A DNA stretch of 64,000 nucleotides from positions 13,789-77,788 of the forward strand of contig PWOI01000179.1 of assembly GCA_003557485.1 (NCBI GenBank), given 5' to 3'. Origin of the DNA: Elusimicrobiota bacterium (GTDB taxonomy: Bacteria > CG03 > SLGR01 > PWQF01). Positions within the stretch are counted from its first letter, which is position 1, and every line of letters starts with the position of its first letter. Under the pieces are notes generated by a model. It did no database searches, was not told where the DNA came from, and was given only the letters and a program-made list of their open reading frames with translations. The translations under genes were made by a program, and so were the position numbers. Positions 1 to 62,583 of the stretch are shown piece after piece.

Positions 1-3000
1 TTGTTAGGGTTGTTAGTTTTTGTCTGTTTTAATCTATATGCGGAAAGTCCGCCTGCTCCTTCAGAATTAAGTTTAAGAGTTGAGGGAACATCAGGGTCAG
101 GTATTCCGGAAAATTATGCAGGCATAGAGAATCCTTATCCGCAATTTAGTTGGGACTCCGCTAATCAGGAGGCTTTTCAGATTCAGCTTGGAATAGGGAA
201 TCCTGCAAATCCGTATAATGTTATATGGGATACGGAAAAAGTTATATCATCTAACAGTTACTGCTATTATGACGGTTCGGAACCCCTTCAATCCAGAGAA
301 CGATATCACTGGCGTGTGAGAATATGGGACAATAATGACCCCGAAGCGTCTCCTTCAGACTGGGCTCTGGACTCTCCTTCTTTTGAAATGAATACCTTTA
401 TATTTAACCGGGACTTTGAACCTATTGGTAATCAGAGTCCGGCGTTTGCTTTCGGGGATGTAACTGGCAACGGTCTGAGAGATATAGTTATCTCCGCTCA
501 TACCGGAACTACGGGGGAATTAATTGTATACGGGAATACTGGCAGCGGCGAATACGAAGCAGTATGGAGTACAGATTCGGTTGTTTCCGAATCAATAGCG
601 CTTGCAGACCTTAACTCCAATGGCTCTCTCGACTTGATAGTGCTTAACAGGCAATCGGCTATGGACAGTCTCTATATTTTCAAAAACAAGGGAGACGGTA
701 CTTTCGAAAAAATATTTCAGAGGACGGGTGACGGAAGCAGAGCTGTAGCTGTAGGGGATATTAATAGAAATGGTAGAATTGATATTGTTGAGGCATTTTA
801 CGGTGTAAACCGGGTTTGGTTAAACAGGAAAGAAAACTTTGATTTTACAGAGTATACTTTTGGAGGAAATAAAAATAATAATGATATTGCACTGGCAGAT
901 CTTAATGGAAATGGATATCTTGATCTTATAGTAGCTAACAGCGGGGCAAATGAAGTTTATCTTAATACGGGTCAATTAAATTCACCATTTGAAAACACAG
1001 CTGATTGGAACGACGAATCTCTTACTCCGGTTACAAGTAATTCGTTGGTGGTTATTGATATAAACGGAAATGGACTCTGGGATTTTGTCATAGGTGGCAG
1101 AATAGGCGACGATCCGGCTTTTTACAGGCTTTATATGAATGAAGGTGACGGTACTTTTAATGGCGATGGGACTACCGAACCATACGATGCCGATTCAAGG
1201 GCACTTACATCGGGTGACATAAATAATAACGGGTTACTGGACCTTGCAGACGGGAATCTGGATAGGGACCTTATTCTTATTAATGAAGGAGGTAGTTTCG
1301 ATCTGTTAAATGAAGGTTTTTATTCTAATGAACAGACTTACCGCGCAGTTCTTGCAGATTTTACGGGAAACGGGAAAGCAGACCTCCTTAGAGGGTTTAC
1401 AGATTCTAAAAGCAAACTGCTTATACAGGTTCCGGATGACTTGTATGTTCCCTATGAGCCTCCCGCTCCCCCGACAGATAATTTTGCAGGATATTACTCA
1501 ACTAGTACAGGAAAACTGCATTTAAGCTGGGGGCACGGGGAGAGCGGGTTTACTCCCCAGAGTCAGCTTTCCTACAATATACGCATAGGAACCTATCCGG
1601 GAGGAGGCAGTATTATCTCCGGCGCTCTGGGCTCAACTGATAATTCAGGGTCATTTTGGGGCAATATAGGACGTTCAACATATGTAAATCTGCAAGTTGA
1701 CCCACAAACTTTTTTCTGGAGTGTACAGGCTATTGATGGAGTTAAAAATGCCGGCCAATGGTCGGTTGAACATATAATTAATACTCCGCCGTCAATTGGT
1801 TGGGCCGAGGAGGGAGTTCTTCTTTCAACTTGCGCGCGCCAGTGGAGTTTTGACAAAATTACCGATAAAGAATATTTAACTTTCATATATCATGAAGATC
1901 GCAGAGGACTTATAGACATAGACTTTAGGGTAAGTGATATTGAGGGAAACAGGGTGAGGCTTACCGGGTTTTCGTATTCCACTGCCGGAGCCGACGGAAC
2001 ATGGTATGACGTTGCCGATGATAGCCCGAATCTGACTCTTTCAGGTAATCAGGAAACGTCCAACTGGCCGGATAAAAATGGAGAGTGGTTTAAGGCAACC
2101 GGAGATCTGGAAACGGAACATATGTTTACTTTTACTGCAGCTGATATGCTTAGGGATGAAGGCATTATAACAGGCAATAATTATAACTTTAAAACTTCCT
2201 CTTTTACTGTTAGGTTTACGGTTGTTGATGAACATGATGCCGAATCCGAGCCCGTGGTATCGGAATACTTTTCTGTTGATTTGAAGAGCCCCTCTGTTCC
2301 CGGATCCCTTATCACAACCGGAACTTACGATAAAGATTCTATTACTCTTGAGTTCAGCACACCTTCTGCCGATGATAACTTTAAAAAATATATGATTTTT
2401 TACGGTGAGACTCCGGGTGAAGCAGGTCATTATTACCCGGGTTACGGTACTATACATGCCGATGAAGCTCTTTTGAGTTATGATTTCGCAGGCGCCACGT
2501 CAACTGTCTTCGAGGGATTAAATCCAGACACCACCTATTATTTCAGAATATGGGCCTATGATAAATTCGGTAATTACAGCAGGCAGCCGGAAGAAGAGAT
2601 AACCGTTCGGAAAACAAACCATCCTCCAGATATTGAAATATATTCCGTATACCAGGCAACCGACGGAAGCGGGCTGGTCTATATTTCCTTCACCGGGTTT
2701 GATAACGATGTTGAATATTCAAGTTATTCCTGGAGCCAGTGCACCTTCAGCTTAGGGGGAAGTACATACGAAATGAAGCCTTCTACCGGTAATATTCTTT
2801 TTTCCGGAGAGCCGCTGCTCTTTACAAAAGATGTCTCTACTTCTGTTTTTGTATGGGATGCCGGACAGCAGCTTGCAGAGTTAACGGCCCTGTCGGATAA
2901 TATACAGGTGAATATTACTCTTACTGTTTTTGACGGAAGAGATACGGGATCAGCGGGATATTCTAATTTTAATGTAGACAATAAACCTCCATATTTTGAG

Positions 3001-5793: not shown

Positions 5794-6857
5794 AAAGGAT
5801 TATTATAAAATCTATTTTTTCTTTTGCCGCAATTATAATAGTTGCAACTGCTCCCGTATTCTCTGTTTTCGGAGACGGGCCCGGAAGCACAGGATATGAT
5901 TTTCTCAATATACCCATAGGTGCGCGCCGCATAGGAATGGCCGCCGGGACAGCCGTAACCGGAGATAGTGACATATACTGGTGGAATCCTGCCGGGGTGG
6001 CATATGTGGAAAGGCCAGTTGTGAGCCTGATGCATAACCAGTTTATAGAAGGCATAAGCCAGCAGAGAGCAGGGTTCACGTTTCCGATGGAGGGCATGTC
6101 GGCGGGCGCTGTTAACCTTACAATGTTGTCGTATGGTGATATAGACGGGTATGACTGGGACGGCAGTCCGACCGGAGGGGTTTCTGCCGGAAGTTACAGT
6201 ATATCCTATACTCAGGCAAAAAGATTTACTTATGATACTGCTGCTGGCTTAAGTTTAAAAGTTATACATGAACAGCTTGATGATGAAAGCGCCTTTGCCG
6301 CAGCTCTTGACGGTGGAGCTTTGTTTGAACCATATGAAGGAGTTTCTGTGGGGCTGGGATGGAGGAACCTCGGCGTAAGCGGTAATTTTATTGATGAGGC
6401 GCCACAGCTTCCTTTATCCTTGTTTTTCGGAGCCGGGTTGAGACTTAATTATTTTACTCTTTTTGTAACAGATATTTCTTATCTGGACGGAGAACTTAAA
6501 TATGGTGCAGGGGTAGAGCTTAGTCTATGGGACTCTTTCTTTTTCCGTGGCGGTTGGGAAAGTTTTGCTGATGTTGATGAGACCTTCCGGCTTGGAGCGG
6601 GCTGGAGCTTCCGGGGAACCGGTATAAATTATGCGTTTGCTCCTTATGATAAGTTCGGCAGTACTCATAGGATGGATATAAGCTTTCAATTTGGTGAGCC
6701 GCCGCTTATAGAGAGAATATACCGCAGGGGGCAGAGTTTATATAGGCAGGAGAAATTTGAAGAAGCCTGGGTTGAATTCAATAAGGTAAAAGCTTTAAAC
6801 TCCAGGTATAAACGCATAAATTACTGGGTTGAAAGAGTGGAGGATGAAATAAAATAA
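5790..6857 (+). CDS. FadL/TodX/PorV-family outer-membrane beta-barrel protein (355 aa), start overlapping the stop of the T9SS cargo gene (ATGA)
   Basis: Signal peptide followed by the N-terminal motif IGARRIGMAAGTAVTGDSDIYWWNPAGVAY, characteristic of the FadL/OMPP1 hatch region (G-x-G-x-A-x-x-A-D-D-A...NPA). Alternating amphipathic beta-strand pattern with a terminal aromatic residue. Position immediately after a T9SS cargo suggests a PorV-like shuttle. Confidence 0.6.
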   Translation: MKRIIIKSIFSFAAIIIVATAPVFSVFGDGPGSTGYDFLNIPIGARRIGMAAGTAVTGDSDIYWWNPAGVAYVERPVVSLMHNQFIEGISQQRAGFTFPMEGMSAGAVNLTMLSYGDIDGYDWDGSPTGGVSAGSYSISYTQAKRFTYDTAAGLSLKVIHEQLDDESAFAAALDGGALFEPYEGVSVGLGWRNLGVSGNFIDEAPQLPLSLFFGAGLRLNYFTLFVTDISYLDGELKYGAGVELSLWDSFFFRGGWESFADVDETFRLGAGWSFRGTGINYAFAPYDKFGSTHRMDISFQFGEPPLIERIYRRGQSLYRQEKFEEAWVEFNKVKALNSRYKRINYWVERVEDEIK

Positions 6858-7130: not shown

Positions 7131-8726
7131 ATGAACAAACTGTTTAAAAATTTAACGGTTTTTTGCCTGGCCCTTATTTACGCGGCCGCGCTGGGGTGGC
7201 TTTGCGTTGGACTGGTTTTTGCCGGTAGCGGCGGAATGCCTGGCGCTTTTATGTCCTGGGGAGCAGGCGCAAGGTCCCTGGGAATGGGAAAGGCTTTTGT
7301 TTCAATTGCTGATGATGCTACGGCTGCGTACTGGAACCCGGCAGGGCTTGCCGGTATTTCCCGTCCCGAACTGACGGCCCTGCATACAATACTCTGGGGC
7401 GGCACGGTTTATGATTTTATAAGTTATGTTCAGCCTACAGAATTCGGGGGGACCTTCGGATTCAGCGGGACCAGGTTGTTTTTGGGCGGTATCGAGGGAA
7501 GGGACTCAGATAACAGAAAAACTTATGACTTTGAAGACATACAGAGCGCTTACGGCATATCATACGGCCAGCGCGTGCTTGATAATCTTTCTGTAGGAGG
7601 CGGATTTAAACGAATGACGCATACTCTCGATGACCATACAAGCGGAAATTATACTATGGATATTGGAGTTCTCTATTCTCCGATTGACAGTCTCAGCCTC
7701 GGTATGAACCTGCAGAATCTTTTTGCAGTTAAGTTTGGAGATTCCACCGATACCAGCCTTCCTATGAACCTGCGCCTGGGCGCAAGCTATAGACTTTTAA
7801 GGGACAGGCTTCTTCTTGCTACTGATTTAGCCGCTTCGGTTTATGGATGGGATATGGGGCTTCCGGTTTTTATGGGAGCCGAGTACAAGGCTATGGATTT
7901 TCTTGATATAAGGTTTGGTGTCGACAGGGAAGAGATAAATATAGGCTTTGGTCTTACATATCTTGATTACGGGTTGGATTATTCATATGCTGCTCACGAT
8001 TTAGGCGGTTCCCACAGGGTTTCCGCAACTGTAAAACTAGGAAGCTCTGTCGAAGAAGCAAAGCGCCGTACTGCCCGGGAACGTGAAGCTGCCGGCGATG
8101 CAGCCTACAGGGCGGGGTTATTCAGAGAGGCTGCCGGATACTATGAGCGCGCTTATGCAATGGATCCTTCTGACAGGGACCTTGCCCGAAAGCTGAATCT
8201 TCTTACAAGAATAGCGCAGGTCATACCTTCTCGTGATGACGACACTCGCGAGGGTGAGCTTTTAAGGAGAGGGCTTAGGGAATATATAGAAGAAAATAAT
8301 ACCGACCTGCTTCTCCTTACACTGAACCATATGCTGGCCCTTGATCCCGGTGACCGTCAGGCGGAAAACCTGCTGCGACTTATCTCTTCAATAGAGGGTA
8401 TCAGCCAGCCAAGGATAAGGGTTGCTTCCGGAATGAGCCTTTCCGAATACAAGCTGCACAGATCTCTGCAACGGTTTTATGAGGGGGAATATGCCAGGGC
8501 GATAGAACTGGCGCAGGATGTTCTTGTTATTGAACCGCGCAACGCTGAAGCCTACAAAAGAATAGGTTCGGCTTTTTATGCAATAGGCAATGAAGAGAGA
8601 GCAGTAGAAAACTGGGAAGAATCGCTTAGAATTAATCCTGCGGATACCCAGCTGGAAAGGTTTCTTGAGAGAGTTCGTGGAGAAGAGGAGAGTCCTCCGG
8701 TAGAAAATATGTTAGATGAGTTTTAA
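7131..8726 (+). CDS. Outer-membrane FadL/PorV-like beta-barrel fused to a C-terminal TPR-repeat domain (531 aa)
   Basis: Signal peptide. GARSLGMGKAFVSIADDATAAYWNPAGLAG hatch motif, paralogous to the 5790 gene. Beta-barrel-like region to about residue 310, then about 200 aa of TPR-like helices (AYRAGLFREAAGYYERAYAMDP..., AYKRIGSAFYAIGNEERAVENWEESLRINP). Confidence 0.7.
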   Translation: MNKLFKNLTVFCLALIYAAALGWLCVGLVFAGSGGMPGAFMSWGAGARSLGMGKAFVSIADDATAAYWNPAGLAGISRPELTALHTILWGGTVYDFISYVQPTEFGGTFGFSGTRLFLGGIEGRDSDNRKTYDFEDIQSAYGISYGQRVLDNLSVGGGFKRMTHTLDDHTSGNYTMDIGVLYSPIDSLSLGMNLQNLFAVKFGDSTDTSLPMNLRLGASYRLLRDRLLLATDLAASVYGWDMGLPVFMGAEYKAMDFLDIRFGVDREEINIGFGLTYLDYGLDYSYAAHDLGGSHRVSATVKLGSSVEEAKRRTAREREAAGDAAYRAGLFREAAGYYERAYAMDPSDRDLARKLNLLTRIAQVIPSRDDDTREGELLRRGLREYIEENNTDLLLLTLNHMLALDPGDRQAENLLRLISSIEGISQPRIRVASGMSLSEYKLHRSLQRFYEGEYARAIELAQDVLVIEPRNAEAYKRIGSAFYAIGNEERAVENWEESLRINPADTQLERFLERVRGEEESPPVENMLDEF

Positions 8727-8738
8727 AGGAATCAAAGC

Positions 8739-10646
8739 ATGAATAAAATGATAAAAGTTCTGGTACTTCTTATGGCGCCCCTTTTTCTGGGCGCCTCTGA
8801 TTTTATGGACTATACAACTTTAATGAATCAGAAAATGGAAACCGAGAGGCGCCTTGAAGACCATCTGCAGGGAATTGTTTCCAGAATAGTCGGGGAAGGA
8901 CGTTCCACAGTTTTAGTCAGCGTAAATCTTTCCGACCTGAGCCGCAGCCGTGAAACTGTAGAAGAATGGCTTGAGCGGGGTGAGGATGCCGAAAGGCGGC
9001 TTCCGATGCGGGAAGAATACCTTCCCGGTATACCCCGCAGGGAAGATATGGCAGAAAGAGAAACGGAAGTCGCCGAGCGGGCCGGTGGAAAACGCCTCCA
9101 GGACGTAATAACTCTGCCTTCGGAATTTATAGAGAGTATGCGCATAAGCCTTATACTTGATTCCACTATATCCGAGACTGTAATCGCAACGGTGGAAAAC
9201 GTTATAACCGAGGTTATGGACCTGGATGCAGCCCGGGGCGATCGTTTAACTATACAGACAGTGGATTTTGCGGGTAGAACGGTAGATTTTATGGGTTTCC
9301 TATTTAATCCATATTTTTATGTTATATCCCTGGTACTTATAATTATAACCATACTCGCGCTTTTTCTTTTCGGGCCGCTGAAAAAATTTCTTTTCGCTAC
9401 TTTACAGACGATGAAAGACTTAAAAGGAATGAAGAGCGAAACCGAATACTCAGGAGGCGGGGGCGGGGGCGGGGGCGGATTTGGCATAACGCCGGACGGC
9501 GAAATTGAAATGGAAGAAGAGATAGAAGAAGATGAAGAATTGAAAGAGGGGGAAGAAGCAGATATAGAAGGCGAAGAAGAAGACGAGGAGTTTAAAAAGA
9601 TGACATATATACCGCTTAAGTTTCTGGAAAACAAGGATTTGAAGAAACTGGCTTACCTTTTAAGTTTTGAAAAACCGGAAGTAGGGGCTCTTCTTCTTAA
9701 ATATCTTTCGCCTCCGCGCGCTGCAAAAGTCCTCAGCTCAATTCCGGGAGAAGAAAGAACTATAGGAATAACAAGGGAGATTGTAAAATTTCAGAGAACT
9801 TCTAAGGAGGTCATGCAGAAAATAGATGAGTTTCTTAGCAGAAAAATAGATTACATTGCCGGCGGCGCCGAAAGTCTTGTGGAAATGATTGAAATGATGG
9901 ATGAAGAAAAAAGAGAGCAGCTCCTAAACCAGATTTCTTCTGAGGATCCTGAATTTGCCGAAAAAATTAAAAAGCGTATTTTCAGTTTTGAAAATATTGT
10001 AAATATGGATGACCCGTCCATACAGACACTAATACAGGAAATGGAGACTGCCGACCTTGGCGCAGCCCTTAAAAATGTATCTGAAGAAGTAAGAAACAAA
10101 TTTGTTTCCAATATGAGCGAAGGTGCGGCTGCTCTTTTAAAAGAGGAAATAGAATTTGGAAAGAAAATGACCGAGGAGCAGATAAAACAGAAACAAATGG
10201 AAGTTGTCGCAAAAATAAAAGATCTGGAGACGTCCGGCTCAATAGCACCCGTGACCGGCGCATCCAAAGAGGAATTATGGGTGGAAGAGCTGGGTGAGGG
10301 AGAAAAAGAAGGAGTTCTTGAGGAAATTATAAAGGCGGCCCAGGAAGCTTACGATAAGAAACAGGAACTTGAAGCTGCTGAGGCTGCCGGCCGTCAGGAT
10401 GATGAAGCTGCATTTGAAAGCTACCGTAAAGGTTTGGAACTCTATAAACACCAGGATTACGATAATGCAATAAAAGAGTTTAATAAATCCATTGCCTCCA
10501 ATCCATCCCTGTGGCAGAGCTATCAATATATAGGTTCCTGCTATCTTGCGCTCGATAATCAGGATGGAGCTAAAAAAGCCTACCGAAAAGCCCTTGAGCT
10601 TAATCCGTCAAACGAGCAGCTCAGGCAATGGTTGGAAAGTCATTGA
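8739..10646 (+). CDS. Membrane-anchored FliG-like protein (635 aa): signal/TM N-terminus, internal TM helix, poly-Gly and acidic linker, FliG middle/C-terminal-like domain, C-terminal TPR repeats
   Basis: Residues about 290-500 align with the FliG M/C pattern (KIKKRIFSFENIVNMDDPSIQTLIQEMETADLGAALKNVSEEVRNKFVSNMSEGAAALLKEEIEFGKKMTEEQIKQKQMEVVAKIKDLETSGSI versus FliG F-x-F-E-D-I...DDRAIQ...L-A-L-K-G-A-S-E-E...NMS-x-R-A-A-E-L-L-R-E-D...EEAQ-x-x-I...EEGEI). Hydrophobic segment FYVISLVLIIITILALFLFGPL. GGGGGGGGGFG and an E-rich run. TPRs at the end. Confidence 0.7.
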   Translation: MNKMIKVLVLLMAPLFLGASDFMDYTTLMNQKMETERRLEDHLQGIVSRIVGEGRSTVLVSVNLSDLSRSRETVEEWLERGEDAERRLPMREEYLPGIPRREDMAERETEVAERAGGKRLQDVITLPSEFIESMRISLILDSTISETVIATVENVITEVMDLDAARGDRLTIQTVDFAGRTVDFMGFLFNPYFYVISLVLIIITILALFLFGPLKKFLFATLQTMKDLKGMKSETEYSGGGGGGGGGFGITPDGEIEMEEEIEEDEELKEGEEADIEGEEEDEEFKKMTYIPLKFLENKDLKKLAYLLSFEKPEVGALLLKYLSPPRAAKVLSSIPGEERTIGITREIVKFQRTSKEVMQKIDEFLSRKIDYIAGGAESLVEMIEMMDEEKREQLLNQISSEDPEFAEKIKKRIFSFENIVNMDDPSIQTLIQEMETADLGAALKNVSEEVRNKFVSNMSEGAAALLKEEIEFGKKMTEEQIKQKQMEVVAKIKDLETSGSIAPVTGASKEELWVEELGEGEKEGVLEEIIKAAQEAYDKKQELEAAEAAGRQDDEAAFESYRKGLELYKHQDYDNAIKEFNKSIASNPSLWQSYQYIGSCYLALDNQDGAKKAYRKALELNPSNEQLRQWLESH

Positions 10647-10709: not shown

Positions 10710-13700
10710 ATGAATCCTGAAAACAACCAAAATCATAATAAAGGGCAGGGACTTCCCGGACCGCCTCCGCCTCCCTTTTCGGGAGATGCCGGGAAGAATC
10801 CTTCGCCCGGAATACCGGATATGCCGCCAATTCCCGGCTCTGCGCCACCCCCTCAGTCTATTGATGATGTTTTTACTCCTCAGGACCCCGGCATGGCAAA
10901 AGAAAAAAAACGTCCTTCTGAGAGAGAGAAACAGATTGAAGAAGAAATTTCCAGGCTGGACAGCCGTATGGAAAAAGAACGGCTTCAGCTGATGGAAAGG
11001 CTTAAGGAAAAAGAAAACGAAAACCTACGCCTGCAGGAACAGTTTCTTGAAAAAGAAAAAGAGGATGCCCGCCGTAAAAAGGAAGAGTTTGATAGATTGA
11101 AAGAAAAGCTTCATGAACAGTTTGTCGAAAAGGAAAATAAACTTAAAGAGGAAAGAGAACAGTGGCGCAGAGAGCTTGACGAAATAAGAAAAGAAAACAG
11201 AAGCAGACTTGCCCTTGAGCAGACGCAGAACCAGATCCGCATAGAGGCCCAGCAGCAGGCTCGCGAAGAATTTCAGCAACAGATGAAAGAAATGAAAAAG
11301 GAGCTTGAAAATGCCCGCCGCCGCGCTTACGAAGAGGCAATTAAACACAAGGAAGAAGAGAAAAATTCCATTAAGGTAGAGCAGGCCCTTAAAGAGGTCC
11401 TCCAATCAACTTCAATGAGCCAGAAAGCCGAGCAGGTTGAAAAGGAAAAAGAAAAACTCCGCGAAGAACTTTATCATCTTGAAAAAGAACTGGCATCCCA
11501 GAAAATTAATATGACTCGCAAGCTGCAGGAGAGCGAGAATTTAAGAGACAATATCAGGCTTGACTATCATAATAGGATCCGTGAAAGCCGGAGTCAGTAT
11601 GAAAGTAAAATTGCAGAGTTGAGAGAGACTGCTTCCGAGCTTGGCAATAAACTCTGGCAGGCCCGGAACAGCTATGAGAACAAAAAGGAGCTGTGGGAAG
11701 AAAGGGTCCGGGAAAATATTCAGGAAAAGGAAAATCTTACACTGCAGTACCAGAAACAGATAAGCGAACTCAGACTTGAATATGAACAGAAAATTACCGA
11801 TGCGTTAAGCGCAAAAGAATCTGCAGAAAACAGGTATTGGGGAATTAAGGAAAAATTTGATGAGCAAACGGTTGAGCTTAATTCGCGTATTAAAGAACTT
11901 GAAAAAGAGAAAGACCTTATAGAAAAAGAATACGGAATGAAAGTCGCCTCTCTTGAAAGCGCCCTTAATGAAGAGAAAGCCGAACTTGCTGCCCAGAAAA
12001 AGATAAGCGAGGAAAGACTTAACCGAATTAACGATGAACTTCACGCAAAGGAGAACAGGTATAAGGAAAAAATAAGCGATATAGAAATAAATTATTCCGA
12101 AAAAATCCAGAATATAAAAGAAAAATATAAATCCGGCCTTTCTGAAAATGAAAGAGAAATAGAAAAGCTTAAGGCGCTTCTGAAGGAAAGCCGTGAGAAA
12201 TTATCACAGAATTCCGGAGGATCTCACCGGGATTTTGAAAACAGCAAAAAAGAGGTAGAAGAAGCCCGCCGTCTAATGGAGAAGGAAAAGAACAGGTTCA
12301 ATTTCCGGCTCAGAGAAATAGAGAATGATTATGAAAAGCGTCTCTCTGAACTTAAAGTTAAAAACAGCCGTCTTGAATCAAGGATATCAGCCCTTGAAGA
12401 AAAAAGAGAGACCTCTATAGATAAATATAACGACAAGATAGAAGAACTCAACGGAAAAATAAATGAACTTAAAATTGAAAACGCAGCTTTACAGGGAGAT
12501 TTACTGAAAACCGAGAGGCAGATTGAGAGTTCCGACAGAGCTTTAGAGGATATGGCCCGCAAAAATGCCGAAATTCACCACCGCCTTGTCAGCAGCCGAA
12601 AAGAAAATGATGAGGACATTTACCGGTTGAGAGAAGAAATAAATTCTCTGCGCAGGGAAAAAACCGAAGCTCTTCTAAGGATTGAGAACGAGCATTCCAG
12701 GGAATCGGAACTCTATGAGAACCAGCTTCTTCAGGCGCGCAGGGCAACAGAGGATCTCAGGCGCGAAAAAGACCGGCAGATAGATTCAATTAAACAGCAG
12801 TTTGATAATTACAGAAAGAACTTTCAGTGGCTTAAACAGGAGTGGCAGCAGCAAAAAGAAGAACTCCGGGAAAATTTCAGCGTGAAGGAAAAGGGATATG
12901 AAAATGAGATAAAACAGCTTGAATCGGCTCTGAGCGAAGTGCAGAAACTGAAAACACATTCTGAAAGTGAACTTAACGCTGAAATTGAAGCTGTCAGGAA
13001 GGAAAAACAATCCCTGCAGGAAAAATTTGAATCAAAAATTCAGCAGATGAGGGATGAATTTGCAGCTAAAAAGACGGATCTTTATGAAAAACTGAATGAA
13101 AAACAAAGGAATATAAGCGAATTGGAAGCCCGTCTGGATACAGAAAGAGTTGACTATACAGCCCGGATCCAGCAAGCGGAAAAAGAGAAAACTGCTGTTT
13201 TGCGGGAAAAAGAGATCCTTGATGTAGAAACTGAAAAACTGAAAAAAGAGACTCATAGCCTCCAGCTCAGGTACGAAAGAGAAGCAGAAGAAAACCGTAA
13301 ACTGAGAGAGGCTCTTCATCATGGTGAAAAGAAGTACAGAAACGAAATAGGAAAGCTTAAGGAATACTACGAGAAAAACCTTGAATCCCTTCGCAGAAGG
13401 CAGGATGGTATTGCAAATGTAGAGTATGACAGCCTTGATACTGAGAATAGAGAATTGAAGCATCAGCTTAAGTCTGCTGAATCTGAGATAAGCCGGCTTA
13501 AGTCACAGCTTGTAGAAAAAGAAGAGGCTCAGGAAAAAATACAGGCTGAAATAGATAAATATACAGCAGAAATTGATGACCTTACACAGGAATTGAAGCA
13601 AAGACAGTCTGTTATTGAACAACTTGAACGGAAAGTTTCTGATATTGATGATTCGCAGGCTGTGCAGGAGGATATAAGCCAGCTTAAAAAAGAAAACAGC

Positions 13701-14618
13701 GAATTAACCGGACATTTGGAAGAATCATTGCGGGAAAGGGATATTCTTAAAGAGAAAAATGCCAGCCTTTTGTCGGAAAATGAAGCTAAAAAGCAGCAAA
13801 TAGAACAGCTTTCCCTTAAACTTGAGGAAAAAGAAAGCCAAATAGGCCAGCTTCAAGGTAAAATTCCCGGAGAAGATATTATATCCGGTAAGAATGAGGA
13901 AATAGCAGAACTTGAAGATGAAATTAAAGAGCTAAGGTCCGCCCTTTCGGATTCTGAATCTAAAATAAAGCAGCTTTCAGAGGCTGCATCCCGTGCGGAT
14001 TCTCTTATGGACAGCAAAAAAGAGATAGAAGAACTTTCCGCTTCACTTGCGGAAAAACATTTGAAAGAAATTGAAGAGAAAGAAAGAATTATAGAAGAAT
14101 TAAGAAAAGAACTTGAGGAGTCCCTTGAAGAACTTGAAGAGAGGGAGCAGCAGCCTGTGACCGATGGGCTTAAATCTGAAAGGCTGCAGGTTCTTGCCGG
14201 GGAGAATGCTGAACTCAAGGAAAAAATAAGAGAATTGGAGTCTCAGCTTGAGATAGGAATGGAGCAGCTTCGCAGTGAGAAGATGGTTCCGGAATATGAT
14301 ACAGAAAAAACAGACGAAAAAATAAAGCAAATCAATGAAAAATGGAGGAAAAAATGGGCCGGCCGCGAACAGAAAGTAAAAGATTTCATATCACAGGCAA
14401 AAGCCAGGCACAGCCAGCTTAAAGACAAGCTTCAGGTTGCTCTTGAAGACCAGAAAATTCTTTCACAGCTTGCAGAAAAGGAAAAACAACAGAAACAGAA
14501 GCTTGCTTCAGAGCAGGCCGAACTTATAAAAGAGCTTCAGGAAAGCAACAGGTCTTTTGTCAGTAAAATACTTGCCAAACTGAAAAAAGGCGGGCCTAAA
14601 GGCGTACTCATCCTTTAA
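10710..14618 (+). CDS. Giant coiled-coil protein (1302 aa): Pro-rich N-terminus followed by about 1200 aa of E/K/R/Q-rich heptad-like sequence
   Basis: Continuous ORF with a strong purine-rich coding strand. N-terminal PGPPPPPFSGD...PPIPGSAPPP. The remainder is low-complexity, charged and predicted alpha-helical. No enzymatic motif recognised. Confidence 0.7.
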   Translation: MNPENNQNHNKGQGLPGPPPPPFSGDAGKNPSPGIPDMPPIPGSAPPPQSIDDVFTPQDPGMAKEKKRPSEREKQIEEEISRLDSRMEKERLQLMERLKEKENENLRLQEQFLEKEKEDARRKKEEFDRLKEKLHEQFVEKENKLKEEREQWRRELDEIRKENRSRLALEQTQNQIRIEAQQQAREEFQQQMKEMKKELENARRRAYEEAIKHKEEEKNSIKVEQALKEVLQSTSMSQKAEQVEKEKEKLREELYHLEKELASQKINMTRKLQESENLRDNIRLDYHNRIRESRSQYESKIAELRETASELGNKLWQARNSYENKKELWEERVRENIQEKENLTLQYQKQISELRLEYEQKITDALSAKESAENRYWGIKEKFDEQTVELNSRIKELEKEKDLIEKEYGMKVASLESALNEEKAELAAQKKISEERLNRINDELHAKENRYKEKISDIEINYSEKIQNIKEKYKSGLSENEREIEKLKALLKESREKLSQNSGGSHRDFENSKKEVEEARRLMEKEKNRFNFRLREIENDYEKRLSELKVKNSRLESRISALEEKRETSIDKYNDKIEELNGKINELKIENAALQGDLLKTERQIESSDRALEDMARKNAEIHHRLVSSRKENDEDIYRLREEINSLRREKTEALLRIENEHSRESELYENQLLQARRATEDLRREKDRQIDSIKQQFDNYRKNFQWLKQEWQQQKEELRENFSVKEKGYENEIKQLESALSEVQKLKTHSESELNAEIEAVRKEKQSLQEKFESKIQQMRDEFAAKKTDLYEKLNEKQRNISELEARLDTERVDYTARIQQAEKEKTAVLREKEILDVETEKLKKETHSLQLRYEREAEENRKLREALHHGEKKYRNEIGKLKEYYEKNLESLRRRQDGIANVEYDSLDTENRELKHQLKSAESEISRLKSQLVEKEEAQEKIQAEIDKYTAEIDDLTQELKQRQSVIEQLERKVSDIDDSQAVQEDISQLKKENSELTGHLEESLRERDILKEKNASLLSENEAKKQQIEQLSLKLEEKESQIGQLQGKIPGEDIISGKNEEIAELEDEIKELRSALSDSESKIKQLSEAASRADSLMDSKKEIEELSASLAEKHLKEIEEKERIIEELRKELEESLEELEEREQQPVTDGLKSERLQVLAGENAELKEKIRELESQLEIGMEQLRSEKMVPEYDTEKTDEKIKQINEKWRKKWAGREQKVKDFISQAKARHSQLKDKLQVALEDQKILSQLAEKEKQQKQKLASEQAELIKELQESNRSFVSKILAKLKKGGPKGVLIL

Positions 14619-14622
14619 AAAA

Positions 14623-14850
14623 ATGATAAATGTGACCAAATTAAACGGCGATGGTATAATCCTTAACGCCGAACTTATAGAAACGGTTGAATCGCGCCCC
14701 GACACTCTTATAACCCTTACTACTGGAAATAAAATTATGGTAAAGGAAAAAGTTGAGGATATAATAAAAAGGGTTGAGGATTATAAAAGGCAGGTAAATA
14801 TGCTTACCCGAGAGAAGCTTAGTGCGTTGCTCAGGGAAGAAGAGGAATAA
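14623..14850 (+). CDS. flbD: FlbD-family flagellar-type protein (75 aa)
   Basis: MINVTKLNGDGIILNAELIETVESRPDTLITLTTGNKIMVKEKVEDIIKRVEDYKRQV matches the FlbD pattern (I-x-L-T-R-L-N-G-x-x-F-x-L-N-A-D-L-I-E-T-I-E-x-T-P-D-T-V-I-T-L-x-N-G-K-K-Y-x-V-K-E). Conserved flbD-motA-motB order. Confidence 0.7.
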   Translation: MINVTKLNGDGIILNAELIETVESRPDTLITLTTGNKIMVKEKVEDIIKRVEDYKRQVNMLTREKLSALLREEEE

Positions 14851-14853
14851 ATT

Positions 14854-15711
14854 ATGGACCTGACGACAGTAATAGGGCTTTCCGGAGGCATTATAATAGT
14901 TTTTACAGCGGTTGCTCTCCGTGGTGGTATGGCAGGCCTGCAGGGGTTTCTGGATATGCCTTCCGCTATGATTACTTACGGGGGAACCTTTGCCGCTCTT
15001 ATGGTGAACTATCCGATAGATAAAGTTGTAAAAGCCTTTAAAGTCGTCAAAAAAGTATTTACCGAACAGCAGGACGACCCTAACGATTATATTGAAAAAT
15101 TCCGCCAGCTGATTATCAAAGCCTCAAAACAGGGAGTTCTTTCCCTTGAGGAAGATATAAAAAAAATGGACAACGAATTTTTAAGAAATGGAGTTAAAAT
15201 GGTCATGGACGGCCAGAGCCAGGAGCATATAGAAGAAGAAATGGAGACTGAACTGGCATTTACCAGGGAAAGGCATAAAATAGGCCAGGAAATTTTTGTG
15301 ACACTTGGCACTTACTCCCCTGCGTTCGGTATGATAGGGACTATTATGGGTCTTATCCTGATGCTAGCCGACCTTCAGGATACTGCCCAGATAGCTGCCG
15401 GTATGGCGGTAGCTCTATTGACAACCTTTTACGGCGCCCTTGGCGCTTATCTTATTTTTCTTCCCATCGCCGGCAAGCTGAAAAGGCGTTCGGAAGAGGA
15501 GCTTTTTCTTAAAAGTGTCATAACCAGAGGCGTCATGTCCCTTCATGCGGGAGAGGTTCCTTCAATAGCGGTAGCTAAACTGCGCGCGTATATACCGAGA
15601 TCCTCTTTTATGGAGCCTTCCGGCACAAAAAAAGGGAAGGCTGACGAAAAAGAAGAAGGAAACAAGAAGAAAAAAACAAAGGTAAAATACCGTAAAAAGA
15701 AGAAGAAATGA
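14854..15711 (+). CDS. motA: MotA/TolQ/ExbB-family proton-channel stator subunit (MotA-like, 285 aa) with Lys-rich C-terminal tail
   Basis: MDLTTVIGLSGGIIIVFTAVAL...ITYGGTFAALMV N-terminal TM pair. C-terminal TM pair with the LGTYSPAFGMIGTIMGLI...LLTTFYGALGAYLIFLPIAGKL signature. Tail KKGKADEKEEGNKKKKTKVKYRKKKKK. Confidence 0.85.
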   Translation: MDLTTVIGLSGGIIIVFTAVALRGGMAGLQGFLDMPSAMITYGGTFAALMVNYPIDKVVKAFKVVKKVFTEQQDDPNDYIEKFRQLIIKASKQGVLSLEEDIKKMDNEFLRNGVKMVMDGQSQEHIEEEMETELAFTRERHKIGQEIFVTLGTYSPAFGMIGTIMGLILMLADLQDTAQIAAGMAVALLTTFYGALGAYLIFLPIAGKLKRRSEEELFLKSVITRGVMSLHAGEVPSIAVAKLRAYIPRSSFMEPSGTKKGKADEKEEGNKKKKTKVKYRKKKKK

Positions 15712-16562
15712 GCAAAATTGCCGCATTTAAGAGGAGTCTTCCTAAAGACGAGGGGGATATTGAGGTCGGTAAAGGCTCCCCCCCGTGGATGACTACTTAT
15801 GGAGACCTTGTTACCCAGCTCCTGATTTTTTTTGTTATGATGTTTGCGCTTGCCGCCACGCTCAATGAGCTGCAGTTGATAAGCATAAAACGCAGAATTG
15901 AGAACTACGCATACCAGAACCAGCTTGGCCATCTTATAATGCTCGATATTAACCCCAAAGGATTGGTAATAACCCTTAGCGAAAAAATGATGTTTGATTC
16001 CGGCCAGGCCGAGATATATGAGGATGCAAAAGCCATTCTCTCCGCAATAGCAGGTGAAATAATAGATGTACCCAATCCTGTCAGAATTGAAGGTCATACG
16101 GATAGCGTACCCATCAGTACAGATAGGTTTCCTTCCAACTGGGAACTGTCAACAGCCCGGGCGACAAATGTAGCAAGATATCTTGTAGAGAACCTGGAAT
16201 TTCCGCCTGACCGGATAGCTGCCGGGGGGTACAGTAAATACCATCCTGCGGTAGGAACGGAAATTGAAGATGAAATATTCAACTACAAGTTAAAAGTAAG
16301 AGAGGTTCCACAGCATTATTCCCTTGAGCTCAGGCGCGCATCCACTCCGGAGGAGGAAGACCTGGTTATGTTGAGAATAAGAGAAGAACAGCTTGAGATA
16401 CAACGGGAAATGCAGGGAATAATTATGGAGCATATACGTATTGCAAACCTTGATGCGGACAGAAGAGCCCGGAACAGGAGGGTTGACATAATAGTGGAGA
16501 GGATAGGCACTACTGTTGAAAGAAGAACGGATATCGCGGCGCCTGTTGCCGTTTCTCATTAG
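15708..16562 (+). CDS. motB: MotB-like stator subunit with OmpA-type peptidoglycan-binding domain (284 aa)
   Basis: PPWMTTYGDLVTQLLIFFVMMFALAA plug/TM motif. IEGHTDSVPI...FPSNWELSTARATNVARYLV...NRRVDIIV OmpA-like domain. Start overlaps the motA stop (ATGA). Confidence 0.85.
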   Translation: MSKIAAFKRSLPKDEGDIEVGKGSPPWMTTYGDLVTQLLIFFVMMFALAATLNELQLISIKRRIENYAYQNQLGHLIMLDINPKGLVITLSEKMMFDSGQAEIYEDAKAILSAIAGEIIDVPNPVRIEGHTDSVPISTDRFPSNWELSTARATNVARYLVENLEFPPDRIAAGGYSKYHPAVGTEIEDEIFNYKLKVREVPQHYSLELRRASTPEEEDLVMLRIREEQLEIQREMQGIIMEHIRIANLDADRRARNRRVDIIVERIGTTVERRTDIAAPVAVSH

Positions 16563-16606
16563 AATTGTGATTTGCAAAAGTTGGAAAATTTTATTATAAG
16601 TGCTAT

Positions 16607-16660
16607 ATGACGGTTAGATATATAAGTATTACAGAAATGAACTGGTGGTGGCCCATGTAG
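16607..16660 (+). CDS. Candidate trp-operon leader peptide MTVRYISITEMNWWWPM (17 aa) with three consecutive Trp codons. An internal ATG at 16637 would give MNWWWPM.
   Basis: In-frame ATG...TGG TGG TGG CCC ATG TAG, located 95 nt upstream of trpE and directly followed by alternative hairpins and two terminators. Confidence 0.5.
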   Translation: MTVRYISITEMNWWWPM

Positions 16661-16692
16661 GGAGCGCTGCCGTGTCTTTATTTTTTAATCAG

Positions 16693-16720
16693 CGGCGCGC
16701 CCTCTGGCGGCCGTTTTTTT
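16693..16720 (+). terminator. Attenuator terminator 1: GC-rich 8-bp stem (one bulge), CTCT loop, U7
   Basis: cggc(g)cgcc-ctct-ggcggccg followed by ttttttt (16714-16720). Confidence 0.5.
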
Positions 16721-16726
16721 ATTTAG

Positions 16727-16754
16727 GGCCGCCTTTAAGGCGGCTCTTTTTTTT
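16727..16754 (+). terminator. Attenuator terminator 2: GGCCGCC-tttaa-GGCGGCT stem-loop plus U8, ending at the trpE ATG. The right arm contains the trpE SD-like AAGG.
   Basis: ggccgcc tttaa ggcggct followed by c tttttttt (16747-16754). ATG at 16755. Confidence 0.55.
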
Positions 16755-18209
16755 ATGCAAACAAAAATTATACCAGTAAGAGAAAAAATTGTAGCGGATT
16801 TTATAACCCCGGTTTCCGGGTATATAAGAATGGGAAGCGGAGATTATTCGTTTCTGCTGGAGTCTGCTGAAAAAGGAAAGGCCGGCAGGTTTTCTTTCGT
16901 AGGGTTCTGCCCCCGGCGGGTTTATGAACTCTACACTGACCGGGTAGATATTATGGAGAGGGCACAGGAGAATCCGAATGTTCTGACGCCTAAAAAGACC
17001 GTAAGAAGCAGTGACCCTCTCGCAGTAATTCAGGAAGTTCAGGACAGGTTTAAAGTTGAGGATAACGGCAGCCTTCCTCCTTTCTGCGGCGGGCTTGTGG
17101 GATACTCTTCATATGAGATGATTGAAACTTTTGAAAACCTTTGCCTTGAAAACCGGCCGGCTGCCGGGGAACCGCTCGGTGTTTTCATCTTTAGTGATGA
17201 AATAATCGCATTTGACCACCTTCACAATACCGCTGAGATAATAAAACTCGTAAGTGAAGAGGAGGGGGAGGATAAGGCCCGCCTACGCATACTGCAGATT
17301 AAGAACAGATTATTGAATACTCAGGTCCAAATAAAACCGATGGCGATGGCGGGCGAGGGCCGCCCTGAATATAAATCAAATTTTACAGAGAGTGAGTTTA
17401 AAAAGGGTGTTAACAAAATAAAAGAAGAAATTATGTCCGGGGAAATAATACAGGGGGTTTTCTCCCAGAGGCTCACAGCCGACGCGCCGGATGACGTTTT
17501 TGACTGCTACAGGGCTTTAAGGGTAGTAAACCCCTCTCCTTATATGTTTTACCTTAAACTTAAGGATACTGTCCTGTGCGGCTCTTCACCTGAAGTTATG
17601 GTAAAGTCTTCCGGCGGAAAAGCATGCCTGAAGCCGATAGCCGGCACGCGTAAAAGGAGCCTTTGCAGCAACGAGGAAAAAGAACTCAAGGAGGATCTAA
17701 AAAAAGACCCTAAAGAAATAGCGGAGCATATAATGCTGGTTGACCTTGGAAGAAATGATCTCGGGAAAGTCTGCAGTCCGGGCAGCGTTAAGGTTAAAAA
17801 TCTTATGGCGGTGGAAAAGTATTCGCACGTAATGCATATGGTAACAGAGATAGAGGGAAACCTGGCTGAAGGGATAGGGAATACGGATGTTTTTAAAGCA
17901 TGTTTTCCCGCCGGCACGGTGAGCGGCGCGCCCAAACTCAGGGCAATGCAGATAATAGACAGTCTGGAAAAAACACCGCGCGGGCCTTATGCGGGCGCAG
18001 TAGGTTATTTTTCTTTTACAGGTGATATGGATACCTGCATTGCAATAAGGACTATGGTGGTAAAGGGAAAGAAAGTTTTTATACAGGCCGGAGCGGGGAT
18101 TGTTGCGGATTCGGTCCCGGAGAAAGAATATATCGAAACTATGAATAAAGCCGGCGCTCTGCTACAGGCCCTTTATATGGCCGGCAGCGGGAAGGAAGAG
18201 AATTTATGA
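16755..18209 (+). CDS. trpE: Anthranilate synthase component I
   Basis: 484 aa. Chorismate-binding family motifs (FLLES...GRFSF, GTRKR, LVDLGRNDLGKV, GAVGYF). Confidence 0.9.
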   Translation: MQTKIIPVREKIVADFITPVSGYIRMGSGDYSFLLESAEKGKAGRFSFVGFCPRRVYELYTDRVDIMERAQENPNVLTPKKTVRSSDPLAVIQEVQDRFKVEDNGSLPPFCGGLVGYSSYEMIETFENLCLENRPAAGEPLGVFIFSDEIIAFDHLHNTAEIIKLVSEEEGEDKARLRILQIKNRLLNTQVQIKPMAMAGEGRPEYKSNFTESEFKKGVNKIKEEIMSGEIIQGVFSQRLTADAPDDVFDCYRALRVVNPSPYMFYLKLKDTVLCGSSPEVMVKSSGGKACLKPIAGTRKRSLCSNEEKELKEDLKKDPKEIAEHIMLVDLGRNDLGKVCSPGSVKVKNLMAVEKYSHVMHMVTEIEGNLAEGIGNTDVFKACFPAGTVSGAPKLRAMQIIDSLEKTPRGPYAGAVGYFSFTGDMDTCIAIRTMVVKGKKVFIQAGAGIVADSVPEKEYIETMNKAGALLQALYMAGSGKEENL

Positions 18210-31330: not shown

Positions 31331-32032
31331 ATGACTGTAAAAATAAGACTAAAAAAAGCGGGAAGAAAAAAAGATCCCCACTATAAGGTTGTAGCTGTTG
31401 ATTCGAGAAAGAAACGAGACGGCCGCGTACTGGACTATCTTGGACATTATCATCCGCAGGATAGATTTCCAAATCTTGTTGTTGATATGGAAAGATATGA
31501 ACATTTCATAAAAACCGGCGCCCAGGTGACGGATACGGTTAGAACCCTGATAAATAAGCTCAAACGTAATTATGTTGAGCCTGAAGAGGGAAAACCGAAA
31601 AAACCGGCACCGGATAAAGTTAAGGATACCTCAGATGCGGAAACTCCGGTTGCTACTGCTGAACCCTCGGAAAAAACTGAAGAGCAGGCACAGGAACCTG
31701 CCGTAGAGCCTTCGGCTGATGAAAAACCGGCACCGGATGAAGTTAAGGATACTGCAGATGCGGAAGCTCCGGCTGCTACTGCTGAATCTTCGGAGAAAAC
31801 TAAAGAACAGGCACAGGAACCTGCCGTAGAGCCTTCGGCTGATGAAAAAACTGATACCGGTGAAGAGTCCGGGGAACCATCTGATCTTAAAAAAGACATA
31901 GAAAAACCGGAAACTGAAAATAAAAAGGAAGAATCTGAAAGCAAAGAAAAAGAAGAAATAAAAGAAAATTCTCCGGAAGAAAAAGCCGTTTCCGAAAAAG
32001 ATAACGAAACCGGAGAAAAGGAAGAAAAATAA
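31331..32032 (+). CDS. rpsP: 30S ribosomal protein S16 with about 150-aa acidic, repeat-containing C-terminal extension
   Basis: MTVKIRLKKAGRKKDPHYKVVAVDSRKKRDGR...LGHYHP. Tail rich in E, K, P and A with two 41-aa repeats. Confidence 0.85.
   Translation: MTVKIRLKKAGRKKDPHYKVVAVDSRKKRDGRVLDYLGHYHPQDRFPNLVVDMERYEHFIKTGAQVTDTVRTLINKLKRNYVEPEEGKPKKPAPDKVKDTSDAETPVATAEPSEKTEEQAQEPAVEPSADEKPAPDEVKDTADAEAPAATAESSEKTKEQAQEPAVEPSADEKTDTGEESGEPSDLKKDIEKPETENKKEESESKEKEEIKENSPEEKAVSEKDNETGEKEEK
31604..31849 (+). repeat. Direct tandem repeat, 2 x 123 bp (about 90% identical), in-frame inside the rpsP tail
   Basis: ccggcaccggatRaagttaaggatacYKcagatgcggaaRctccggYtgctactgctgaa...gaacctgccgtagagccttcggctgatgaaaaa occurs at 31604 and again at 31727. 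Confidence 0.8.
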
Positions 32033-59092: not shown

Positions 59093-59113
59093 AAAAGGAA
59101 GGAGTAACTTATT

Positions 59114-59416: not shown

Positions 59417-59477
59417 AAACCGGTCAGGAATGCCGGCTGAGATATAATGCCTGCAGGCATAAAGGGAGAGAAATAAA

Positions 59478-59777: not shown

Positions 59778-59817
59778 ATTGTCCCCCTTTTTTTGAATCT
59801 TTGAGGAGGCAGACCCT

Positions 59818-61248: not shown

Positions 61249-61253
61249 AACGC

Positions 61254-62579: not shown

Positions 62580-62583
62580 GAAA

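Follow-up and report, generated by a model that had tools for sequence, protein, structure and literature searches.

Generation of torque by MotAB stators acting on FliG is, to our knowledge, known only from flagella. The flagellar stators PomAB, MotPS and MotAB make up the 'FIT' clade, which has a four-helix torque interface (PMC12505986). Most free-living members of the phylum Elusimicrobiota, including the magnetotactic ones, have no flagellar structural genes yet carry motAB, flbD and fliG, whose role was called 'unclear' or 'enigmatic' by Uzun et al., and only a few members of the phylum own complete flagellar sets (10.1101/2022.07.08.499144). Elusimicrobia were likewise said by Doud et al. 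(PMC7031533) to show a 'clear absence of ... flagellar genes', and motility without flagella is an open problem for the magnetotactic representatives (10.1101/2022.07.08.499144). Here we analyse a 64,000-nt stretch of DNA from an Elusimicrobiota bacterium (GenBank assembly GCA_003557485.1, contig PWOI01000179.1, positions 13,789–77,788; hereafter the window), which carries an flbD-motA-motB triad at positions 14623–16562 of the plus strand. An earlier, sequence-only reading of this DNA described the triad well and missed the FliG-domain gene and the other genes that lie directly upstream and belong to the same cassette.

We consider it fairly probable that this triad is the stator half of a conserved, non-flagellar rotor–stator cassette of Elusimicrobiota, in which components of the flagellar rotor and stator occur in a new architecture and in a new, apparently non-flagellar context. 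The cassette runs, in this order, through genes for an outer-membrane barrel of the PorV/PorQ family with TPR repeats (PorV/Q-TPR), a FliF/FliG fusion protein, a large coiled-coil protein, FlbD, MotA and MotB. Neither the fusion architecture nor the cassette was found in the literature that we searched on Elusimicrobia and the type IX secretion system (T9SS), non-flagellar FliG/MotAB systems, Endomicrobia and Antarctic lakes.

Among the described systems, the functionally most similar gene neighbourhood is that of the T9SS and gliding machinery of Bacteroidota (GldLM/PorLM, SprB), where an ion-driven 5:2 motor is also encoded together with PorV/PorQ barrels and giant surface proteins that resemble those with a C-terminal sorting domain (CTD). 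In the cassette, however, the motor is MotAB with FliG rather than GldL/GldM, the CTD matches are borderline, and SprA, PorK, PorN and other core genes were not found in the window; our literature search found nothing linking Elusimicrobiota to the T9SS. In Zorya (ZorAB) and in the Myxococcus Agl-Glt system, too, a MotAB-family motor is functionally tied both to envelope or surface machinery and to a coiled coil of great length. In Zorya the coiled coil is part of ZorA, and the Myxococcus AglRQS motor works with the coiled-coil protein AglZ. The cassette differs from both in that its motor is of the flagellar subfamily, being neither ZorA nor TolQ-like, and in that its coiled coil is encoded by a separate gene.

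The flbD-motA-motB triad encodes a flagellar-type stator

The triad consists of three intact ORFs on the plus strand, with the same boundaries as in the sequence-only reading: flbD (14623–14850, 75 aa; PF06289, 7e-26), motA for the stator A subunit (14854–15711, 285 aa; MotA_ExbB, 6e-30) and motB (15708–16562, 284 aa; MotB_plug, 5e-11, and OmpA, 4e-15). The flbD gene starts 4 nt past the coiled-coil gene and ends 3 nt short of motA, and the ATG of motB overlaps the TGA of motA within an ATGA at 15708–15711; motA and motB are translationally coupled, as had been proposed. It was also correctly seen that no fliL, fliM or fliN follows motB; the trp operon is found there instead.

FlbD scores 90 bits on PF06289 (cut-off 24.7), ends in an acidic stretch (…LLREEEE) and has all six of the most conserved SwrD residues (N15, I19, E23, P26, D27 and T28; the set is from PMC13232269). 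In B. subtilis and Borrelia burgdorferi, too, SwrD/FlbD is a small PF06289 protein with a charged C-terminal tail encoded directly upstream of motA; SwrD forms hexameric rings with charged tails, and its binding to MotA has been predicted, not shown (PMC13232269). The FlbD of the cassette differs from the known SwrD/FlbD proteins in its non-flagellar context and in that the sign of its tail charge switches with that of the MotA tail between subclades.

The sequence-only reading had proposed to place MotA and MotB among the related clades and to look for their functional residues, and in both respects the proteins proved to be of the flagellar stator lineage rather than ExbBD, TolQR or Zorya. 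Against the NCBIfam models, MotA scores 233 bits with MotP, 214 with PomA and 202 with MotA vs 22 with TolQ and 20 with ExbB; its score with the ZorA model is 15.7 bits. Its matches in the PDB are flagellar stators only (1.6e-49 to 2e-27), led by Clostridium sporogenes MotA (6ysf, 1.6e-49) and Vibrio PomA (8brd, 2e-44) and including Paenibacillus MotA1 and the MotA proteins of B. subtilis, Aquifex and C. jejuni. For this assignment, the gaps in hidden Markov model (HMM) and PDB scores stand in for a tree that would include the GldL, AglR and ExbB clades. All of the stator scores of MotA fall under the NCBIfam equivalog cut-offs (237–394 bits), and the protein is thus not an equivalog of any named stator.

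Like the PomAB, MotPS and MotAB structures (6YSF, 8BRD), MotA has four transmembrane (TM) segments, a large cytoplasmic domain, the characteristic prolines, a threonine ring and charged torque residues. P156 and P204 are the equivalents of E. coli P173 and P222, and T163 and T190/T191 line the channel; these prolines and threonines are invariant in the column conservation of 115 homologues. The torque residues are K92 and E99, the counterparts of E. coli R90 and E98 in a numbering transferred through the conserved R-x-G-x-L-S-L-E motif. A basic residue occupies the R90 position in 27/27 members of the subclade, and the E98 position holds Gln in 20 of these 27, the window protein keeping its glutamate. 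MotB comprises the plug, a TM segment with Asp33 and an OmpA-like peptidoglycan-binding domain with the motifs GHTD (at aa 129) and NRRV (at aa 256). Its NCBIfam matches are MotS, MotD and MotB, and in the alignment with C. sporogenes MotB (6ysf_A, 5e-29) D33 falls on the conserved Asp.

The proteins thus resemble flagellar stators in MotA topology, in the MotB plug, TM Asp and peptidoglycan-binding domain, in the flbD-motA-motB gene order and in the motA/motB coupling. They differ from them in lying outside a flagellar operon, in a 36-aa tail of MotA and a 64-aa insertion in MotB, in the predominance of Gln at the E98 position of the subclade and in having as partner a FliF/FliG fusion rather than a C-ring.

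Comparison with the closest relative (L012; dS 1.0–1.4) yielded dN/dS values of 0.034 for motA, 0.043 for motB, 0.047 for flbD and 0.042 for the FliG-domain gene. All four genes are under strong purifying selection and are thus functional genes rather than relics.

A FliF/FliG fusion protein is the candidate rotor

The candidate rotor is encoded two genes upstream of the triad (8739–10646, plus strand). Its 635-aa product, in which Pfam recognizes FliG_M, FliG_C and TPR, naturally joins an RBM3/collar-like domain of the FliF type to a TM helix, the middle and C-terminal domains of FliG and TPR repeats. A signal peptide (aa 1–20) is followed by the FliF RBM3/collar-like periplasmic domain (aa ~25–177), the TM helix (aa ~186–215), a Gly-rich, acidic linker with a net charge of −20 (aa 236–291), the FliG middle domain (292–371), the FliG C-terminal torque domain (398–502), a second acidic linker and, finally, 2–3 TPR repeats (546–635). 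Residues 292–511 match the FliG-MC of T. maritima at 1.9e-36.

The full-length search for homologues of the fusion gave 20 proteins, a yield probably dominated by words from the TPR region, and was supplemented by a genome scan with the fusion alignment. The same succession of signal peptide, alpha/beta region, TM helix, linker, FliG_M, FliG_C, acidic linker and TPR is kept across the 17 aligned members of the family, in which the alpha/beta region of ~150 aa is broken by a disordered stretch with an invariant LPGIP and the TM helix carries the invariant FNPYFY...FLFGPL. The FliF-like part was modelled (aa 21–240, with the family as the multiple sequence alignment) at a mean predicted local distance difference test score (pLDDT) of 67.5, rising to ~80 in the structured parts, and the top 18 Foldseek matches of this model are all FliF RBM3, collar or MS-ring entries. 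The Pfam family YscJ_FliF_C recurs, although below threshold, in 15/17 members. The fusion therefore has the features that mark ring-building proteins of the FliF/SctJ type: an RBM3-type alpha/beta fold, a split of this fold by a collar insertion and a TM helix behind it.

The FliG part departs from the canonical FliG layout (a soluble protein of ~330–350 aa with FliG_N, M and C). With the FliG model TIGR00207 the score is 146.9 bits, short of the 226.7 required, and the alignment does not begin until model position 112; the fusion thus has no FliG_N, which fits a covalent link in place of the contact between FliF and FliG_N. The torque helix retains its K264 equivalent and the acidic pair E469/E470, a pair that most of the fusions share. 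The R281 equivalent is Gly or Ala in all of them, and that of R297 lacks conservation. The MFXF hinge survives as IFSF, and the FliM-binding motif EHPQ reads EKPE.

With the FliF MS-ring and FliG the fusion shares an RBM3/collar-like domain, a TM helix, the M and C domains of FliG and the membrane topology. Unlike them, it is a natural single gene without RBM1/RBM2 and FliG_N, its N-terminus looks like a cleavable signal peptide rather than TM1 of FliF, and TPR repeats have been added at the C-terminus. Unlike the flagellar rotor, it has no FliM/FliN, export gate or rod genes nearby. Engineered or spontaneous FliF-FliG fusions remain functional in Salmonella. A FliF-FliG fusion chain of this kind is deposited in the PDB (8z4d).

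The cassette is conserved in Elusimicrobiota, apparently outside flagellar contexts

Loci for comparison were taken from the genomic contexts of MotA homologues and from a scan of species-representative genomes with the fusion alignment (27 loci), and were scored with the window proteins; six loci with a canonical 343-aa FliG (L033–L038) served as negative controls. The order PorV/Q-TPR, FliF/FliG fusion, large ORF, FlbD, MotA and MotB is found in all those loci among L001–L032 that have enough flank, and the linkage holds in at least 20 species-level Elusimicrobiota loci. PorV/Q-TPR is the first gene of this conserved core, 12 nt upstream of the fusion gene, and the successive intergenic gaps from it to motB in the window are 12, 63, 4, 3 and −4 nt. 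Across the loci the fusion measures 581–719 aa, with a TM segment at aa ~180–250. The large ORF between the fusion gene and flbD/motA encodes 522–1655 aa with a combined E/K/R/Q/L fraction of 0.50–0.68 vs 0.28–0.32 in the control loci. FlbD is missing in three cassette loci. The genes downstream of the cassette vary (trp operon, Wzy_C-TPR, TctA and others), so that the cassette ends at motB.

We found no flagellar structural, export or switch genes in the rest of the 64-kb window and no flagellar genes, fliL, fliM and fliN included, in the ±10-kb flanks of at least 20 related loci. The rest of the window is devoted to housekeeping functions (trpEDGCFBA, accD, folC, tatC, the gene for ribosomal protein S16, trmD, a comM-like gene, dprA, topA, xerC, polA, rho and tpiA) and also holds a microcompartment cluster among its non-flagellar functions.

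A divergent form of the cassette is seen in L007 (8189–11438), from a lineage with a closed 2.87-Mb genome: its fusion lacks TPR, its MotB is short and it has no FlbD, and in place of the cytoplasmic coiled-coil gene a gene for an 809-aa protein with a signal peptide comes after motB. Contigs whose cassette proteins are near-identical carry the submitter labels Elusimicrobia, Clostridia, Firmicutes, Caldiserica, Sumerlaeota and Deltaproteobacteria (L015, L016, L019–L024, L025, L027, L031 and L032), and a single MotA cluster at 90% identity carries three phylum labels, which suggests mis-binning or mislabelling. Since the proteins with odd taxon labels are at least 90% identical to ones labelled Elusimicrobiota, we did not read these labels as a sign that the cassette occurs outside the phylum. 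Judging by the names of their metagenome-assembled genomes, the closest relatives may come from soda-lake sediments.

The polybasic MotA tail and linked traits of its subclade

The last 36 residues of MotA include 16 K/R, and the protein closes with ...SSFMEPSGTKKGKADEKEEGNKKKKTKVKYRKKKKK. This tail (aa 250–285; 15601–15708, plus strand; 16 K/R and 5 D/E, with a KVKYRK motif near its end) had been called atypical of MotA, and it is indeed confined to the closest 28 homologues and under selection. These 28 proteins (68–94% identity), all of them from metagenome-assembled genomes and, where named, from Elusimicrobiota, have Lys/Arg-rich tails of 35–50 aa, and the final 30 residues of every one contain at least 10 K/R (median 15.5). 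The 92 homologues that come next have a median of 7, and no more than two of them attain 13. Within their last 20 residues, 19/28 of the closest homologues and 0/92 of the next ones show a K-[VI]-K-[FY]-like motif. The dN/dS of the tail is 0.16 (34 codons) vs 0.024 for the MotA core. The polybasic tail is a lineage-specific detail of the larger system.

Several other traits of the cassette accompany this tail. MotB carries a charged insertion of 64 aa (aa 186–249; 16263–16454, plus strand) inside its OmpA-like domain, between the GY..P loop and the NRRV strand, where it splits the HMMER domain match into aa 63–183 and aa 249–263; the insertion is found in the window, L001, L003 and L005 and not in L007, L008 and L009. 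MotB accordingly measures 276–286 aa in the polybasic-tail subclade and mostly 213–245 aa elsewhere, the longer exceptions outside the subclade having 318–343 and 642 aa. Such long forms include those of L029 (13868–15796, 642 aa), L011 (10783–11802, 339) and L025 (9358–10389, 343), which makes the periplasmic part of MotB a hotspot of variation. The end of FlbD is acidic in the polybasic-tail subclade and basic in the other subclades; a basic MotA tail is thus paired with an acidic FlbD end and vice versa, which fits a contact between the two tails. In the same subclade the coiled-coil protein ends in ...KG[VI]L[IL]L and the linker of the fusion is more acidic (net charge −11 to −33). The correlation of the K/R count of the MotA tail with the charge of the rotor linker (Spearman rho −0.53, without phylogenetic correction) is suggestive.

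The MotA tail, the MotB insertion, the acidic FlbD end and the more acidic rotor linker may have had a joint origin in this one subclade. Most likely, the Lys-rich tail would act as an electrostatic tether of the stator units to acidic partners, which could be the rotor linker, the FlbD end and/or the coiled-coil protein (net charge −38). Alternatively, the tail may bind anionic lipids.

Other proteins of the cassette and its giant upstream neighbour

The core cassette opens with the gene for PorV/Q-TPR (7131–8726, plus strand), which combines a PorV/PorQ-family barrel (aa ~40–302; NF033709, 115.1 bits, cut-off 90) with a TPR region (aa ~317–505). Pfam recognizes UPF0164 and TPR_1/2, and the N-terminus is signal-peptide-like; the C-terminal TPR repeats would be periplasmic. 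The N-terminal half of this protein is paralogous (27% identity, E=4e-21) to the product of the gene that precedes it across a gap of 273 nt (5790–6857, plus strand), a 355-aa PorV/PorQ-family outer-membrane beta-barrel with a signal peptide that scores 111.9 bits on NF033709 (cut-off 90), has a hydrophobic N-terminal segment and reaches 97 bits with the PorQ model, under the equivalog cut-off. Both barrels pass the cut-off of the PorV/PorQ family but fail the equivalog models of PorV, PorQ and PorV2.

The gene of the smaller barrel overlaps by 4 nt that of a giant secreted surface protein (1–5793, plus strand), whose 5' end is cut by the window edge and whose visible part of ~1,930 aa contains FG-GAP_3 (3e-28), Ig_Rha78A_N, fn3 and Big_5 domains. 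Its end, ...GVYIYVVESSGNRKSGKLMIIR, resembles a T9SS-type sorting domain, and the last ~72 aa match the model TIGR04183 (Por_Secre_tail) at 22.6 bits vs a cut-off of 23, a borderline score. An ortholog is present in L018 (681 bits). A giant ORF also directly precedes PorV/Q-TPR in 12 further loci; within the stretch that each locus covers it often encodes more than 2,000–2,800 aa, and one such gene call extends to 16,455 aa. These giants share a conserved end (...GGY..I.V.S..GT...RKI[GA][IV][IV][RH]), and in three of them the C-termini gave matches to Por_Secre_tail (PF18962) or FlgD_ig, all below threshold. The giant surface protein is likely to be a cargo or an adhesin, an accessory and variable member of the cluster. 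Upstream giants of this kind were noted in L003 (1–1353, the gene call running off the locus), L017 (2–8329), L023 (3–8378) and L029 (3–7196), and the very large ORFs at this position (more than 2,400–2,800 aa visible) have almost no Pfam matches.

Between the fusion gene and flbD lies the gene of a giant cytoplasmic coiled-coil protein of 1302 aa (10710–14618, plus strand), ~57% of which is E, K, R, Q and L. It has a poly-proline N-terminus and no TM segment, and gives weak matches to coiled coils of the SMC/Rad50 type. Its termini are conserved in L001, L003 and L005, and the C-terminal block carries the motifs W-[KR]-KKW...RE..., LSQLAEKE and ...F..K[IL]..K....KG[VI]L[IL]L.

A proposed rotor–stator mechanism and its alternatives

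In the mechanism that we propose, the fusion protein would oligomerize through its RBM3-like domain into a membrane ring that shows FliG_C underneath. This ring would be MS-ring and upper C-ring in one protein, so that no contact between FliG_N and FliF would be needed. MotA5MotB2 units, which MotB would fix to the peptidoglycan and which the plug and Asp33 would gate, would use the flow of H+ or Na+ to rotate against the FliG_C torque helix. At this interface the basic K92 of MotA would face the acidic E469/E470 of the fusion as the retained charge pair, the second canonical pair (E98–R281) having apparently been lost or relaxed on both the MotA and the FliG side, and FlbD would assist the stator as a member of the SwrD family. 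The output of the motor would probably go to the cell envelope, as movement, secretion or anchoring of surface adhesins in a gliding-like process. This is suggested by the PorV/PorQ-TPR barrel that heads the operon and by the giant protein with a T9SS-like CTD that usually precedes it; resting on analogy, the envelope or adhesin output is the least secure step.

Several observations weigh against this interpretation. Ring formation, rotation and all of the protein–protein contacts are what we infer, and the AlphaFold2 models are only moderate (mean pLDDT 64–68). Loss of the R281 equivalent and the change of EHPQ to EKPE make the FliG module a derived one. Assignment of the CTDs is borderline, and the 64-kb window showed no core gene of the T9SS. 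Some FlbD-MotA-MotB triads of the phylum have no fusion gene nearby (L009, L010), and the host may carry a complete flagellar regulon elsewhere in its genome, as some Elusimicrobiota do. As to the tether, the idea draws on essentially one evolutionary event in one subclade, and the AAG/AAA-rich DNA of the tail, just 5' of the motB start, may partly serve translational coupling.

The sequence-only reading likened the triad to flagellar stator operons. MotA and MotB are indeed flagellar-type by sequence, but an ordinary flagellar role is opposed by the synteny of the cassette. If the host were flagellated, with its regulon elsewhere and the triad adjacent to a FliG paralogue by chance, one would expect just such stator proteins, encoded in the FlbD-MotA-MotB order usual in Firmicutes and Spirochaetes, and the few Elusimicrobiota with complete flagellar sets and the lone triads of L009 and L010 would fall into place. 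Chance adjacency is nevertheless at odds with a linkage to the FliF/FliG fusion, the coiled-coil giant and PorV/Q-TPR that is kept in at least 20 species-level loci, and flagellar genes are absent from the 64 kb and from the ±10-kb flanks of the relatives; in addition, all stator scores fall under the NCBIfam equivalog cut-offs, and orphan motAB, flbD and fliG have been published for non-flagellated members of the phylum (10.1101/2022.07.08.499144; PMC7031533). We regard an ordinary flagellar stator operon as improbable. Somewhat less so, yet still unlikely in our judgement, is a non-rotary energizer of the envelope akin to Tol-Pal or TonB, in which MotAB would drive conformational changes of the PorV/Q-TPR barrel or the anchoring or secretion of the giant protein, with the fusion and the coiled coil as a static scaffold or regulator. 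The outer-membrane barrels that open the operon and the giant secreted proteins before it would suit such a device, as would a torque helix without the R281 equivalent and a degenerate FliM-binding EHPQ, and 5:2 motors have been described as the power source of many processes at the outer membrane (PMC12204202). However, the stator keeps its plug, peptidoglycan-binding domain and large cytoplasmic torque domain, which is not the architecture of TolQR/ExbBD, the torque-interface residues are kept on both sides (the basic residue of MotA and the acidic pair of FliG), and the RBM3 fold of FliF is a ring-forming module. An identity of the stator itself with ExbBD or TolQR was rejected (~20 bits with TolQ/ExbB vs 233 with MotP).

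The two remaining readings are both highly improbable. That the genes are the decaying, functionless relic of a lost flagellum could be argued from the largely non-flagellated state of the phylum (10.1101/2022.07.08.499144; PMC7031533) and from the remnant flagellar genes of other bacteria (PMC12199754). It was rejected in view of dN/dS values of ~0.03–0.05 at dS >1, intact frames and synteny in many species; lineage-specific elaborations (the MotA tail, the MotB insertion and the gene fusion) and catalytic residues invariant across 115 homologues also speak against decay. Anti-phage defence by a Zorya-like system, with a MotAB-like motor coupled to a long coiled coil, is brought to mind by the very long coiled-coil protein that adjoins the MotAB pair and by ZorB models that match MotB at 39–53 bits. 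This candidate was rejected because MotA scores 15.7 bits with ZorA vs 233 with MotP and the coiled coil is encoded by a separate gene. Moreover, there are no effector genes of the ZorC/D/E type, PADLOC gave no matches for the remaining proteins of the cassette, the genes around the motor code for FliG, FlbD and PorV/Q, and the cassette lies amid housekeeping genes and has been conserved by vertical descent.

If the rotor–stator interpretation is correct, the cassette offers a concrete and experimentally approachable minimal rotor–stator module working outside the flagellum, which would bear on the stepwise evolution or exaptation of the flagellar motor and would explain the 'enigmatic' motAB, flbD and fliG of non-flagellated Elusimicrobiota, the magnetotactic ones included (10.1101/2022.07.08.499144). 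The link to a PorV/PorQ barrel and a giant adhesin suggests a new way to power surface-protein dynamics. In its boldest form, which we put forward tentatively and with more doubt than confidence, the proposal is that Elusimicrobiota possess a free-standing rotary motor, a one-protein ring turned by MotAB/FlbD without export apparatus, rod, hook or filament, that drives the movement or secretion of the giant CTD adhesin via PorV/PorQ-TPR and the coiled coil and would add a third type to the known motors of gliding or surface transport. Its phylogeny would make such a motor either the product of exaptation once the flagellum had been lost or a surviving model of a rotor–stator module that preceded the flagellum.

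The trp attenuator and other features of the window

The two hairpins behind motB (16691–16715 and 16725–16747), which had been taken for strong terminators of the mot operon, are instead part of a trp attenuator (16634–16754, plus strand) directly upstream of trpE (16755). They may also stop transcription of the mot operon; they are not evidence about its nature. The leader ORF at 16637–16660 (ATG AAC TGG TGG TGG CCC ATG TAG) encodes the peptide MNWWWPM and is followed by three hairpins, two of them U-tailed (minimum free energy −51.9 kcal/mol, z=−3.2). An antiterminator-like alternative pairing would join the 3' arm of hairpin 2 (16706–12) with the 5' arm of hairpin 3 (16727–33). In a relative (L006), a leader ending in ...NENWWWRM and a terminator are likewise found upstream of trpE. 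Rfam returned no family above the gathering score for a trp leader in 16500–16800, and the attenuator call is thus based on the leader peptide with its WWW, on the hairpins and on the conservation of the leader.

PilZ proteins brake flagellar stators. A gene for a GAF-GGDEF diguanylate cyclase is present in the window (56461–57558), and in L007 a PilZ-domain gene (16884–17681) lies a few kb from the cassette, which hints at control by cyclic di-GMP.

The microcompartment-like cluster of the window (58475–63584) encodes a PduL-type phosphate propanoyltransferase, an aldehyde dehydrogenase, an RnfC/Nuo51-like Fe-S flavoprotein and a shell protein with tandem bacterial-microcompartment domains. 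Gene-strand bias is extreme: practically all substantial ORFs in the 64 kb are on the plus strand, and the long ORFs of the minus strand overlap plus-strand genes and look spurious. The ORF of ribosomal protein S16 (31331–32032) encodes 233 aa, of which only aa 10–67 form the S16 domain, the remainder including a long C-terminal extension.

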